64,000 bases of DNA from Candidatus Babeliales bacterium (GTDB lineage: Bacteria > Babelota > Babeliae > Babelales > JACPOV01). The stretch spans positions 96,001 through 160,000 of the forward strand of contig JBFWNW010000002.1 of assembly GCA_050250855.1 (NCBI GenBank), read 5' to 3'. Below the pieces are notes generated by a model. The model saw nothing but the letters and a program-made list of their open reading frames with translations, was not told the origin of the DNA and did no database searches. The position numbers and the translations under genes are program-made. Shown piece by piece: positions 1-9,310 of the stretch (position 1 is its first letter; each line of letters opens with the position of its first letter).

Positions 1-2083
1 TTGGCGCTTTATAATCATTGTGCATAGCGCCAAAAAAATCCTTAAGCAACTGCTCATGACCTTTATCAGGAACCATTACTTTTTCATTAAATGATGATGG
101 TAATCCAAAACCTTGCAAGACTTTATAATCGTCCATCAAAATTGATTTAGAATCATAAAAGACTTCCATACGCTCTTTTCCTAGATCGCCATGACCTAAT
201 GACGTATACAATAAAGAACAAATTGAACCATCTGCAAAGCTAAATTGAACGGAAAAATTATCCGTTGGAAAAAGATCATCATGTTTTGGTTTTAGTGATT
301 CTACTGATAATGCTACTGGATAGGAATCTGTTAAATGAACAAAAAGATCAAAAATATGACACGCCTCACCTATAATTCTGCCAGCACCAACTTCAGTTTG
401 AATCCAATGATTTTTAGGGATAAAACCAGCATTCATTCGATAATGTACAACAAGTGGTGATGAACGCTTTGCTACTTCTTTTTTTATTTTCTGCACAAAA
501 GGAGCAAAGGAACGATTATAATCAACACAGAATGGCAATGAAGAATTTTTCTCAAAAAACGCTTTCATTTCGTGTAGTTGATCAAAATCAGTAACCATAG
601 GTTTTTCTAAGAATACCGCTTTGCCATGTTGCAATGCAGCAAGAGCTTGCTTGCTATGGTATTTGTGAGGAGATGCAATTAATACTGCATCAACTAAATC
701 TTCATCAAAAAGTTTGCTATCATCAGATAATGCTTTTGCTGCACCATATGTTTTTGAAACAGTAATTGAATTTGCCATATTGGCATCAACAACGGCATTA
801 ATTTTTACATTTTTGATACGAGAAATTATAGGCATAAGCTTCACTTTTGCAAAGCCACCAGCACCAACAACCCCGACACGTAAACGATCTTTAAATGCTG
901 GAACAAATCTTATTTCTTCTAATGGTACGGATTCTTTTTGAACCGCCTCTTCTTGATGAGGCGCAAGCTCATGTTCTTCAGTACGATAAGAAAGAACTAC
1001 CGCCAAAACGTCTTGCGATTTTAAAGAATCATATGCCTTTTCTGCTTGATCAAGAGAGGCTTCTTGTGAAATTAAACTATCAACATCAAGCTTTTTACGT
1101 TCAATAAGATCAACAATTGATTCCATATTGCGATTTTCTGTCCAACGCACGTAGGCATAAGGATAATCTAAACCATTTTGCTCATACGATGCATCGTAAC
1201 GGCCAGGACCATATGAACATGAAATAAGAAAATCAATCTCTTTTTGATAAAATGGTGAACGATCAAAGGTAAGCGGAACATCACCAACTAAGACAACACG
1301 CCCTTTTTTGCGCGTAATTTCCATAGATTGTTGAATTATTCCTTTATGCGATGATCCTGCGGTAATAATAGTACAGTCAACGCCCTGATGAGCAGTTACA
1401 AATTCTATTTCTTTTTTTATATCAACTTCTGCAGGATTCAACACGGTATCAGCACCTAGTTTAAGCGCTAAATCAAGGCGATTTTTTAATAAATCTAATG
1501 CAATAACTTTGCAACCAGAAATCTTTGCCAATTGCACCGTAAATTGCCCAAGTAGACCTAAACCAAGAACGCACACGGTATCACCCAGTTTAACATCGGC
1601 ACGACGTAAACCTTGTAATGCAATTGCACCTAACGTTGTAGTACTTGCTTGGCGCAAATATTCTTCGCTGCTTACTTTAGTAACAAGATTTTCTGGCACA
1701 ATGACCATTTCAGCATGATGAGCAAAACCTGCGCCAGCACAAGCAACAAAATCTCCTGCTCTGTATTTTTTTATATTTTTGCCTACAGCAATAACTTTTC
1801 CAGAACATGAGTATCCTAGTGCTTGCAAATTGCCGGCAAGTTTTTCGCGAATAAGTGCTTTTGTTCCTTCTATCCCATTTTTTGCAATAGAAAGAAGAAC
1901 TTTAGGCAACTTTAACGGAATATTGCTAAAAACACTTTGTTGAGCATTTGCAATAGTAGAACCTTCTGTTCCTGGACTAATACAAGAGTAATAAACTTCA
2001 ACAAGAACACTATTATCATCAAGAATAGGTTCGCATACATCTTTTACTGCTATAATACCTTTTTCTAGAAACAGTTGTCTCAT
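1..2083 (-). CDS. Bi-domain oxidoreductase (Zn-ADH/MDR-like + Gfo/Idh/MocA) of a polysaccharide locus; runs off the left edge
   Basis: Absent from the ORF track. Manual translation from ATG at 2083 gives MRQLFLEKG...SCISPGTE...LGYSCSG...GAGFAHHAE...VLGLGLLGQ...SCSYGPGRYD...VGVVGAGGFA...VFLEKP. It abuts wecC. Confidence 0.85.
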   Translation of the reverse strand, partial: MRQLFLEKGIIAVKDVCEPILDDNSVLVEVYYSCISPGTEGSTIANAQQSVFSNIPLKLPKVLLSIAKNGIEGTKALIREKLAGNLQALGYSCSGKVIAVGKNIKKYRAGDFVACAGAGFAHHAEMVIVPENLVTKVSSEEYLRQASTTTLGAIALQGLRRADVKLGDTVCVLGLGLLGQFTVQLAKISGCKVIALDLLKNRLDLALKLGADTVLNPAEVDIKKEIEFVTAHQGVDCTIITAGSSHKGIIQQSMEITRKKGRVVLVGDVPLTFDRSPFYQKEIDFLISCSYGPGRYDASYEQNGLDYPYAYVRWTENRNMESIVDLIERKKLDVDSLISQEASLDQAEKAYDSLKSQDVLAVVLSYRTEEHELAPHQEEAVQKESVPLEEIRFVPAFKDRLRVGVVGAGGFAKVKLMPIISRIKNVKINAVVDANMANSITVSKTYGAAKALSDDSKLFDEDLVDAVLIASPHKYHSKQALAALQHGKAVFLEKPMVTDFDQLHEMKAFFEKNSSLPFCVDYNRSFAPFVQKIKKEVAKRSSPLVVHYRMNAGFIPKNHWIQTEVGAGRIIGEACHIFDLFVHLTDSYPVALSVESLKPKHDDLFPTDNFSVQFSFADGSICSLLYTSLGHGDLGKERMEVFYDSKSILMDDYKVLQGFGLPSSFNEKVMVPDKGHEQLLKDFFGAMHNDYKAP

Positions 2084-6796: not shown

Positions 6797-7462
6797 ATGC
6801 TTAAATTAATGTCGCTGCTACTTTTATTTCAATTAGAATCACCAGAAATAACAGTAAAAAAGGCCAATCACGATAAAGTATTGGAAATCTATCTTGATAT
6901 AGCATTTAAAACTGCCTATGAAAGAGCAGTGAATTATGGATTGTGTGCTTCAAATCTTTCGCATTATATTAAAGATTCACAGGAGATTCCTTCTTTGAAG
7001 TATAATGAGAAAAGAAGCATTATAGATTCTTTACAAAATGAATCTCATCAATATCCTTTTGCTTATATAGCAGGCAAATTTAACTTGGATCATGTAAAAC
7101 TTTCCCGTCTTTATGATGTCATAACCCCCTATGAAATGGCACTGAATTTTTATCTTTATGCTGCTTATACGAAAGGGCTTTTTAGCCGAGAGTATAATCT
7201 TCTTGCAAATATATGGCATTCAAACATACACCATAAAGAAATGATATTTGAATGCTTCAGCGATAAAGAACATAAAAAGATTCAGGCTCGATGCAAAAAG
7301 ATTATTAAAAAAGATTTTCGCCAGCCACTCTACAGTGTGAAGCCAGCCCCTCACAAAAATCCGTATTGGGTTCATCCTCATTCCCCTTATATAGATCACG
7401 GGATTAACCCTCATTCATCATGGGCTAATCATTCAAATATTTATAAATATCAGCCCTTTTAG
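6797..7462 (+). CDS. Hypothetical protein with possible signal peptide and His/Pro-rich C-terminus
   Basis: 221-aa ORF with RBS (aaagga); no recognised motif. Confidence 0.6.
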   Translation: MLKLMSLLLLFQLESPEITVKKANHDKVLEIYLDIAFKTAYERAVNYGLCASNLSHYIKDSQEIPSLKYNEKRSIIDSLQNESHQYPFAYIAGKFNLDHVKLSRLYDVITPYEMALNFYLYAAYTKGLFSREYNLLANIWHSNIHHKEMIFECFSDKEHKKIQARCKKIIKKDFRQPLYSVKPAPHKNPYWVHPHSPYIDHGINPHSSWANHSNIYKYQPF

Positions 7463-7536
7463 TATACAAAAACCCTTTTATACCAAGAGATTCTGCTGAA
7501 GCAATATTTTTCTTTTTGATCATCAATAAAAACAGC
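7425..7536 (-). pseudogene. Remnant 3' end of the HAD hydrolase gene (diverged copy of 10931-11025)
   Basis: Encodes NIASAESLGIKGFLYTKRADIYK versus NIASAESLGIKGLLYTKGADIYK in the intact gene; about 7 substitutions and 1 indel in 96 bp. Confidence 0.85.
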
Positions 7537-7544
7537 GCGAAAGA

Positions 7545-9147
7545 ATATTCTTGCTTTTTATATAAAGAATATGATGTACTTTCTATATAAAAAAAAGGAG
7601 AACCATGAAGAATCATTTTAAAAAATTACTATTGTTCGGATTACTCGGTGCAATGCCCACAATTTTTGCTGAGAAAATAAAGCTTGAATCAAGCAATGAC
7701 AAAAAGTTCGAAATCGAAAAAAAAGCCGCAGAACAATCAATAACTATTAAAAACATGTTAGCAGATATAGGTGAAGCAACTGATCAACCAATTCCTTTGC
7801 CCAATATAGATGGAGCAACGTTGGGGCATATGGTAGAATTTCTTACAAACATAGATAAAAATCCGAAAAAATATAAAAATCCTCAAGAACTAATTACTTT
7901 GATTAAAAATAAAAATTTAGATCTTGAAAATCTTATAAAAATAGTTAATGCAACAAATTATCTTGATATACCTACGCTCCTTGATGCTGCAACTACAGTT
8001 TTAGCAGAATATATCAATACCAATCCAAGCAATCTTGAAGAAAAAGTCAAAAAACTTCCTTTAGATATTCTAAAACTTGTTATGCAAAAATTAAATTTTA
8101 AAGAAACACCATTCAAAACACTTATGGAAGATAGATCTGTCACTTCAGTAGCATGGTCACCAGATAGCAAAAAGCTTGCATCAGGCTCAGATGACGGTAT
8201 CATAAAAACATGGGATACCAATACCTGGCAAAAGACACCTCTTAAAGGGCATACATCCTATGTCCATTCAGTAGCATGGTCACCAGATGGCACCAAGCTT
8301 GCATCAGGCTCATATGATGATAAAACCATAAAAATATGGGATGCCAATAACGGGAAAGAGCTCAAAATTCTTAAGGGGCATACAGGCGATATCATTTCAG
8401 TAGCATGGTCACCAGATGGCACTAAGCTTGCATCAGGCTCAAATGACGAGACCATAAAAATATGGGATGCAAAAAACTGGAAAAAGCTCCAAACTCTTAC
8501 GGGGCATGAAGGCGCGATTAATTCAGTAGCATGGTCACCAGATGGCACTAAGCTTGCATCAGGCTCACATGACGAGACCATAAAAATATGGAATGCAAAA
8601 AATGGCACAGAGCTCCAAACCCTTACAGGGCATACAGCTGAGGTCACTTCAGTAGCATGGTCACCAGATGGCACTAAGCTTGCATCAGGCTCACATGACA
8701 AAACCATAAAAATATGGGATGCCAATAACGGGAAAGAGCTCCAAATTCTTAGGGGGCATAAAGATTCTGTCTATTCAGTAGCATGGTCACCAGATGGCAA
8801 AAATCTTGCATCAGGCTCAGATGACAAAACCATAAAAATATGGAATACCAATACCTGGAAAGAGCTCCAAACTCTTACAGGGCATGAAGGCGCGATTAAT
8901 TCAGTAGCATGGTCACCAGATGGCACTAAGCTTGCATCAGGCTCACATGACAAAACTATAAAAATATGGGAACGAGAGTCTGAAATAGGAAAAAAATTAC
9001 AAGAAGTTATAAAAGAAAAAGAAAAAACAACCAAAATCTAAAACAAGAACTGCAGCTGGCAATGCATGAAATTGATTTCTTAAATAAAGAATTACAATCA
9101 TTGCAAAGTGAGCTGGATAGATTGGTAAAAATGCTGGGATAATCTAA
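7545..9147 (+). repeat. Tandem duplication unit 1 (upstream region, Skp1-WD40 gene and about 105 bp downstream)
   Basis: Upstream, 5' coding and 3' flanks near-identical to 9311-10916. Confidence 0.9.
7605..9041 (+). CDS. Secreted Skp1(POZ)-like + F-box-like + 7xWD40 protein, copy 1
   Basis: Signal peptide; IKLESSNDKKFEI..AAEQSITIKNML..PIPLPNI and ATNYLDIPTLLD resemble Skp1; LPLDILKLVMQKL; seven SVAWSPD..KIW/KTW repeats; aggag RBS. Confidence 0.9.
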   Translation: MKNHFKKLLLFGLLGAMPTIFAEKIKLESSNDKKFEIEKKAAEQSITIKNMLADIGEATDQPIPLPNIDGATLGHMVEFLTNIDKNPKKYKNPQELITLIKNKNLDLENLIKIVNATNYLDIPTLLDAATTVLAEYINTNPSNLEEKVKKLPLDILKLVMQKLNFKETPFKTLMEDRSVTSVAWSPDSKKLASGSDDGIIKTWDTNTWQKTPLKGHTSYVHSVAWSPDGTKLASGSYDDKTIKIWDANNGKELKILKGHTGDIISVAWSPDGTKLASGSNDETIKIWDAKNWKKLQTLTGHEGAINSVAWSPDGTKLASGSHDETIKIWNAKNGTELQTLTGHTAEVTSVAWSPDGTKLASGSHDKTIKIWDANNGKELQILRGHKDSVYSVAWSPDGKNLASGSDDKTIKIWNTNTWKELQTLTGHEGAINSVAWSPDGTKLASGSHDKTIKIWERESEIGKKLQEVIKEKEKTTKI

Positions 9148-9182
9148 AAGTTTATCGCAAAATTAGAAACTTTTGCAGTTTT

Positions 9183-9302
9183 ATACTTCGATTCGGGTCA
9201 AAACCCTTGCTCCCGTCGCCCCCAAGGCTACATCGGACACCGCAGGGCGAACGTTTATATTAAAGCCGTTTGTGCTGAGTTTATCCAAGCATTCGAACGG
9301 CA
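9183..9302. repeat. REP-like palindromic element (inverted, degenerate) between the two Skp1-WD40 copies
   Basis: ccgtttgtgctgagtttatccaagcattcgaacggca is a degenerate reverse complement of 15911-15947; cagggcgaacg arm also present. Confidence 0.75.
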
Positions 9303-9310
9303 GTTAAAGG

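Follow-up and report, generated by a model that had tools for sequence, protein, structure and literature searches.

Frame transitions that stand near the 3' ends of genes and do not cluster were read as probable indel mutations in the GeneTack work on frameshifted genes (Antonov et al., 2013; PMC3711429). The locus described here is like the singleton genes of that work in having a single 3' frame transition, unclustered across genera and devoid of recoding signals, and like its 3' truncations in that a slightly shortened and plausibly functional product is left; it is unlike those cases in that two tandem paralogs are affected and in that the lost part, for which no homolog is known, is a coiled coil of unusual regularity. 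The loss of a 3' module through a single base is an ordinary, already known kind of event, and, read as such a loss, the present case is a further instance of it.

A similar layout is found in E. coli dnaX and in the reversed dnaX of Chlorobium (PMC5009743), where a 0-frame stop follows an A-rich site and a C-terminal module lies in the -1 frame. In contrast to dnaX, our locus lacks an A_AAA_AAG, has no stimulator within working distance and is not conserved across genomes, and the genome has genes for both tRNA-Lys(CTT) and tRNA-Lys(TTT). In Citrobacter rodentium tssM1 (PMC4256274), too, a premature stop lies behind an A run and the C-terminal part is in another frame; that run is an A11 and full-length homologs exist, whereas here the runs are A6 and A7 and no full-length homolog was found. 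Efficient polymerase slippage was described at runs of 9 (PMC5009743) and 11 (PMC4256274), and insertion errors are reported to grow exponentially with run length in a paper that describes no case of a restored frame in Buchnera (PMC5574713).

The surroundings of the locus resemble the inserts of Furuta et al. (2010; PMC2853133), which are below 20 kb, are flanked by direct repeats of more than 30 bp, hold no mobile-element gene and have an empty site; those inserts carry restriction-modification genes, whereas here the insert carries a Skp1-WD40 pair and the empty site is seen at the level of gene order, in another species. The proteins themselves, with a signal-peptide-type N-terminus and a eukaryote-like repeat domain, are like the exported repeat proteins of Dependentiae/TM6 (PMC4776705, PMC6561590), as are the paralog arrays, the 1.2-Mb genome and the ATP/ADP translocases found here. 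Skp1 is absent from the main text of PMC4776705, and BTB and WD40 from that of PMC6561590; subscription journals and supplements aside (the TM6 supplementary domain tables could list Skp1), we found no paper on Skp1 in Babeliales and none on frameshifting in Dependentiae.

Results

The Skp1-WD40 Gene Pair

The window, that is, the whole stretch of DNA analyzed (64,000 nucleotides; C2:96001-160000), belongs to an assembly of 1.22 Mb in 11 contigs, 95% complete and with a GC content of 35-37% on the large contigs, and landfill metagenome runs contain the same DNA. The genome encodes ATP/ADP translocases (six PF03219 matches in three reading frames, against 0 of 14 control genomes), and the genomes listed by our phylum search, all of the same order or closer, measure 0.5-2.4 Mb. 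We infer that the genome is that of a member of the Dependentiae/Babeliae (TM6) and that the organism is a parasite of protists. The genes under study and their neighbors are as follows.

7605..9041, plus strand: Skp1-WD40 gene copy 1, 478 aa (Pfam PF03931, E 1.6e-16; PF00400, seven times)
9371..10810, plus strand: Skp1-WD40 gene copy 2, 479 aa (Pfam PF03931, E 6.3e-18; PF00400, seven times)
7540..7604, plus strand: upstream/RBS region of copy 1, with which the duplicated unit begins (differs from 9306-9370 at 1 of 65 nt)
9306..9370, plus strand: upstream/RBS region of copy 2, compared with that of copy 1
9149..9305, no strand: REP-like element, repeated in the genome, that lies between the copies (44 hits, itself included, by blastn against the genome at E<=1e-3)
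10921-11655, minus strand: HAD hydrolase gene, convergent with copy 2, its 3' end forming the right direct repeat (see below)

Both proteins have a signal-peptide-like N-terminus (judged by eye), a Skp1_POZ domain that lies above the Pfam cut-off in either copy (60.7 and 65.1 bits against 21.9) and seven WD40 repeats, and a PDB sequence search returned 33 matches, all labelled Skp1-type (best E 1.3e-16). An AlphaFold model of the short form of copy 1, built from a 9-sequence alignment (mean pLDDT 89.5), comprises a Skp1-like domain, 28 strands that form a closed seven-bladed propeller and an end helix at residues 460-477. In this model the short protein looks like a complete fold, whose end helix the tail described below would merely lengthen. 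Going by domain content, the exported short forms are plausibly mimics of a host SCF adaptor. Between the Skp1 domain and the propeller (residues ~150-162; 8050-8090 and 9800-9845 in the DNA) there is a helix pair with the motif LP.DI, which may resemble the start of an F-box; possibly the protein mimics an SCF substrate receptor as a single Skp1/F-box/WD40 chain.

Skp1-like matches were found in 10 of 60 relatives; in a search with the full-length protein, generic WD40 proteins swamped the output, and a search with the Skp1 region gave no scoring match. Paralogs in the same genome have tails of 36-56 residues after the propeller, with hydrophobic ends and different from the tail described below, which suggests that long add-on tails are normal here; the C-terminal tails of the family are of three different kinds within this genome alone. 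A second assembly record, apparently of the same species (P0122, P0124; a contig of 7,525 nt), encodes the HIT protein with a single residue changed and gene 1 up to residue 72, the contig ending inside this gene; this places copy 1 at the same locus in that assembly.

A Hidden Coiled-Coil Tail in the -1 Frame

An earlier note, made from the letters of this DNA, had reported that both genes stop four codons past an A6 run and that a 38-residue frame then continues at -1. Translation of the frames reproduced this exactly in both copies: in frame 0, copy 1 ends in KEKEKTTKI (stop 9039-9041) and copy 2 in KEKEKTTRT (stop 10808-10810), and the parts concerned are these.

9022..9027, plus strand: A6 run of copy 1, the most likely site of the frame break (ungapped match in X2 and X3 contigs, see below)
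10791..10796, plus strand: A6 run of copy 2 (ungapped match in X1 and X2 contigs)
9026..9142, plus strand: hidden coiled-coil tail of copy 1, 38 codons (9026-9139) and stop (9140-9142)
10795..10911, plus strand: hidden coiled-coil tail of copy 2, 38 codons (10795-10908) and stop (10909-10911)

The heptad pattern claimed for the tail is pronounced. Leu or Ile stands at 9 of the 10 a/d positions, and the two tails rank second and third by heptad score (a hand-made score, written after the tail had been seen) among 564,980 stop-free 35-residue windows from the six frames of contigs C1-C4, 317,016 of them in genes and 247,964 elsewhere. Its score was attained by none of 2,000 residue shuffles of the tail, and four other top-listed windows outside called genes, the first-ranked included, proved to be real small genes or gene starts. 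With an X put in place of the break, the Leu and Ile of the helix upstream occupy positions d and a in the register of the tail (two informative positions), and the continuity with the preceding helix that the note had described is found if exactly one base is missing.

A coding origin of the tail is supported on sequence grounds, because its heptad score ranks second to third in the genome, and the statement that the tail is or was coding also agrees with the position of the tail stop, at the end of the duplicated unit and 9 nt from the stop of the convergent HAD gene; if the tail is not counted, that gap becomes 110 nt. A chance origin of the tail we consider scarcely credible. The codon-usage score was uninformative, lying at the 31st percentile of genes and being equaled by 23% of intergenic stop-free windows.

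The -1 frame as a whole is open from 8984, for 52 codons. A bZIP identity of this longer frame was rejected (Pfam bZIP, E 0.03-0.09, below the cut-off), its basic stretch being what the shifted KEKEK codons yield, and so was a separate small gene starting at ATG 9062, a codon that is AGG in copy 2. A 635-codon -1 extension of a repeat protein on C1 (344110-348003, minus strand) turned out to be an artefact of a 100-N scaffold gap. A promoter-like match with a TG extension overlaps the tail stop in both copies (9114-9143 and 10883-10912); the promoter scan was at chance level (10 found, 12.2 expected), as was the terminator scan, and an Rfam search gave nothing significant.

The A6 Runs in Public Sequence Data

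The note had asked for A6 and A7 to be told apart in reads. The region is contained in contigs of three public runs from one study (X1, X2 and X3), of which X1 is probably the source sample. Contig records covering 9004-9117 (X2), 9005-9291 (X3) and 10773-10886 (X1 and X2) have no other letters and no gaps; four records from three samples span the runs and all read A6, with no insertion listed at either run at a 5% threshold, the run lying just 17-18 nt from the left ends of the records, under the 31-letter bridging rule, and contigs being prone to drop rare alleles. Subject to this bridging caveat, A6 in the contigs of all three runs makes a sequencing error, the exit that the note had kept open in the form of a true A7, unlikely. 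In this genome, runs of six or more A occur in 935 of 1,016 genes, A6 runs within genes number 2,296, and the neighboring genes are intact.

Differences Between the Copies

Over the 117 nt of the tail, the copies differ at four sites. Two of them, 9034 and 9037, are silent in the -1 frame but alter residues in frame 0, as had been noted; the two others, 9063 (M/R) and 9087 (K/T), had been missed, and each replaces a residue of the -1 frame outside the a/d positions, which makes the tally of synonymous to non-synonymous changes 2:2. The argument for coding that was built on the synonymous changes does not stand, since a 2:2 tally fits neutrality (neutral probability of at least two synonymous changes among four, 0.17-0.30; of no stop, 0.77-0.79) and the non-coding DNA upstream is no less conserved (1 of 65 nt differs; in the first 83 codons, 3 of 249 nt). 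Compared with neutrality, purifying selection at omega 0.3-0.5 makes the same split ~1.5-2.6 times more likely. There are no differences between the copies in 8961-9033, nor in the 66 nt that precede the break. With non-coding upstream DNA equally conserved, we attribute the likeness of the tails to recent duplication or conversion; in neutral simulations with two substitutions, 89% of runs retained an open frame and 71% a high score.

Insertion and Duplication History

The gene pair lies between two direct repeats.

7425..7536, no strand: direct repeat of ~110 bp, left copy, a duplicate of the HAD 3' end that overlaps the last 38 nt of ORF 6797-7462
10913..11025, no strand: direct repeat of ~110 bp, right copy, the 3' end of the HAD gene (88.6% identity to the left copy over 114 columns)

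These repeats flank an insert of ~3.4 kb that holds the whole Skp1-WD40 pair. In a genome of the same genus (G001), the homologs of ORF 6797-7462 (32% identity) and the HAD gene (52%) converge as immediate neighbors, and the insert is absent. The locus has the marks of an insertion with long target duplication, namely repeats above 30 bp, an insert below 20 kb and an empty site in a relative. The duplicated unit spans 7540 to 9147 and 9306 to 10916, and identity between the copies ends at 9147/10916, 5 nt past the tail stop, where the earlier note had placed the end of the unit. At its very end, the tail is similar to the target site, with 9 of 10 nt shared around 7421-7430.

Divergence between the flanking repeats amounts to 8-11%, and a tail left neutral over 7-10% divergence kept its score in just 7-20% of simulations, which together suggest that the frame was under selection for most of the time since the insertion and that the break is recent. 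The tail was probably translated at this locus until recently, a timing that fails if the repeats came from different strains. ORF 6797-7462 has its last 12 codons inside the left direct repeat, and its end (7330-7462) is a Pro/His/Trp-rich repetitive stretch that is absent from the G001 homolog.

Search for Homologs of the Tail

Homologs carrying the tail, to which the note had looked for a decision, were not found among 23 relatives, either in frame or hidden. A comparable coiled coil after the last WD repeat, in frames 0, -1 or +1, occurs in 0 of these 23 WD40-type ORFs (best 1.22 against 1.64); 26 ORFs had been scored, the pair itself and one antisense shadow being left out of the 23 and ORFs running off their locus being skipped. 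Two G001 homologs end 18 and 21 residues past the last WD Trp, compared with 23 here, and share an L.E.I-type helix.

A protein search with the tail gave no matches at E<=0.001 among 1.84 billion representatives, and none of 29 candidates for the tail within longer proteins reached E<=10. JGI metagenomes and IMG/VR yielded 594 and 106 pattern matches, respectively, none confirmed by tblastn, and no exact match to a 24-nt tail motif. The tail was found in 0 of 60 relatives, and 260 genomes of the phylum gave two weak matches (E 0.005 and 0.008) to unrelated proteins, about what chance gives at E<=0.01. DNA searches outside the own genome returned only short, mostly A-rich matches (best E 2.6e-6), and small coiled-coil clusters in the ESM Atlas at 0.91, with recognition below the bar, are a lead only. 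No intact in-frame allele was found, with one other genome of the genus covered and with a 38-residue coiled coil as a weak query.

An X1/X2 contig that shares 9086-9119 was rejected as an in-frame homolog, as its flank matches a coiled-coil ORF of Candidatus Nitrosocosmicus; this we regard as a chance match, because it is local (~35 nt) and has no flanking similarity. Two near-identical Candidatus Nitrosocosmicus ORFs that end in a coiled coil (L051 and L052; about 1940-2030, minus strand) match in the tail's frame.

Signals for Recoding

The A6 run is outside the canonical X_XXY_YYZ phase, as the earlier note had said. A heptamer in phase, which would give an alternative -1 entry and which the note had not mentioned, lies upstream.

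8990..8996, plus strand: in-phase A_AAA_AAA (GGA AAA AAA), 11 codons upstream of the A6 run (in copy 2, 10759-10765)

With the -1 frame open from 8984, a shift at this heptamer would also reach the tail. The heptamer is common, with 791 in-phase occurrences in 495 of the 1,016 called genes. A stimulatory 3' stem-loop or pseudoknot typically lies 5-9 nt downstream of a -1 shift site, and an internal Shine-Dalgarno-like stimulator about 9-14 nt upstream. There was no stem-loop at a working distance from the A6 run (z +0.07 to +1.8 in 60-nt windows after it) and no excess structure in the 73 nt after the A7 run of the heptamer (z +0.55). Among the many folding windows tried, those of 90-121 nt gave z of about -2.1 to -2.8 for copy 1, whose whole tail RNA folds into a long hairpin; the stable part of this hairpin starts 25 nt downstream of the A6 run, and the structure of copy 2 is weaker in most windows (z -0.35 to -2.3). 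The 25 nt before the A6 run have no Shine-Dalgarno-like duplex below -3 kcal/mol, and before the A7 run there are weak matches only (-3.3 to -3.9, at offsets -25 to -21 and -6). For transcriptional slippage, an A/T run of about 9 or more was sought, and the runs present are A7 and A6. Conservation of the shift site together with its downstream frame was seen neither in the 23 relatives nor in the 260 phylum genomes. No RNA run was listed as containing this DNA, which is neutral as to the products made. The evidence for programmed slippage is weak.

Discussion

The note had left the choice between slippage and a 1-nt deletion. Deletion is much the better supported of the two; neither a canonical site at the run nor a stimulator within working distance was found, and relatives showed no conservation. 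We consider it probable, by no means certain, that the tail is a relic C-terminus, cut off by one lost base shortly before the inserted cassette was duplicated in tandem. The ancestral unit would have encoded a post-propeller region of ~57 residues ending in a leucine-zipper-type coiled coil, which probably served self-association. One base would then have been lost in the A-rich Lys/Glu stretch, most simply at 9022-9027 through replication slippage, either shortly before the duplication or later in one copy and followed by gene conversion. The genes would now make the short proteins of 478 and 479 aa, and any read-through into the tail would be background error with no programme behind it. 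As the short proteins still have their Skp1 domain, a closed propeller and five initial turns of the helix, such a loss could be tolerated, and the tail DNA would be undecayed because it is too young. That the short form matches the ends of two same-genus homologs and that A6 runs are ubiquitous speak for a relic; against it, the in-frame ancestor is a reconstruction, no intact allele was found, the 2:2 pattern leans to purifying selection, both replacements spare the a/d positions, and the divergence of the flanking repeats requires the break to be recent.

That the true sequence has A7, with the tail simply in frame, seems very unlikely. A homopolymer one base short is a classic error, the run lies near the record ends under the bridging rule, and all of the sequencing runs come from one study, with X1 probably the source sample and the platform not on record; however, separate contigs for each copy match letter for letter without gaps in X1, X2 and X3, the X1 record of copy 2 (16.5) and the X2 record of copy 1 (9.0) are at single-copy depth, and neighboring genes are intact in spite of A runs as long in most genes. 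Somewhat less remote, and still improbable, is phase variation, in which A6/A7 flips in the DNA would turn the tail on in a subpopulation and the assembly would give the majority state. Single-base changes in A runs are the commonest reversible indels, the intact tail would be restored to frame by one such event and a minor A7 would not show in contigs, which drop rare variants; nevertheless, six A are few for a contingency tract, the two copies do not differ in state, and all four records from three samples read A6 with no insertion at the 5% threshold. A captured fragment, which we rate as unlikely, would be the terminal part of some coiled-coil gene unrelated to this one; illegitimate recombination during assembly of the cassette would have fused it to the WD40 gene in the wrong frame, and it would never have been translated within this protein. 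It would suit a family whose C-terminal tails, of three kinds in this genome, are freely exchanged and whose same-genus homologs stop where the short form does and share the L.E.I-type helix, and the resemblance of the tail's last bases to the target site means that the tail stop may come from the junction. Yet the register continues from the helix if exactly one base is missing (judged by two informative positions only), a search of the genome, the loci and the fetched proteins turned up no donor, and a piece never translated should have decayed more over the age of the insertion.

Functional recoding appears a little more doubtful than capture. Here -1 slippage of the ribosome or of RNA polymerase at Lys codons, with no detectable stimulator, would add the tail in a minority of products and yield two forms of an exported Skp1-WD40 mimic of an SCF adaptor, a short monomer and a long zipper dimer, the shift being made by tandem Lys tRNAs at the A_AAA_AAA of 8990-8996 or by a single tRNA-Lys at 9022-9027. 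In both copies no stop interrupts the -1 frame between 8984 and the tail stop, the A runs are identical between them, the likelihood ratio of ~2 favors constraint, an in-phase A_AAA_AAA exists and the tail RNA of copy 1 forms a hairpin. On the other side, the A6 site is not an X_XXY_YYZ, A_AAA_AAA, which in E. coli induces far less shifting than A_AAA_AAG, is present in about half of the genes, the stable part of the hairpin is 25 nt away, with no excess structure in the 60-nt windows and a weaker fold in copy 2, there is no Shine-Dalgarno-like match upstream of A6, and neither the 23 relatives nor the 260 genomes conserve the arrangement. The runs are also shorter than the 9 (PMC5009743) or 11 (PMC4256274) for which efficient polymerase slippage was described.

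If the tail is a relic, the locus captures, on a small scale, the turnover of tails on exported repeat proteins in a reduced parasite genome, through insertion with target duplication, tandem duplication and the loss of a C-terminal module through one base; this is known biology, and its importance lies mainly in annotation. Were slippage true, it would tune the avidity or the location of host-protein degradation, as isoform control of a host-mimicking ubiquitin-ligase adaptor, and it would be, as far as the literature was searched, the first case of recoding in the phylum. With a shift at 8990-8996, the long form would gain a basic KRKRK stretch that could act as a nuclear-localization signal.

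The Skp1-WD40 fusion family may merit more attention than the tail. At least four further Skp1-WD40 paralogs form a tandem array (C1:471001-476265 and C3:1-595) in which the genes abut stop to start; the array is interrupted by the end of contig C1 and probably continues at the start of C3, and two hydrophobic C-terminal tails alternate along it.
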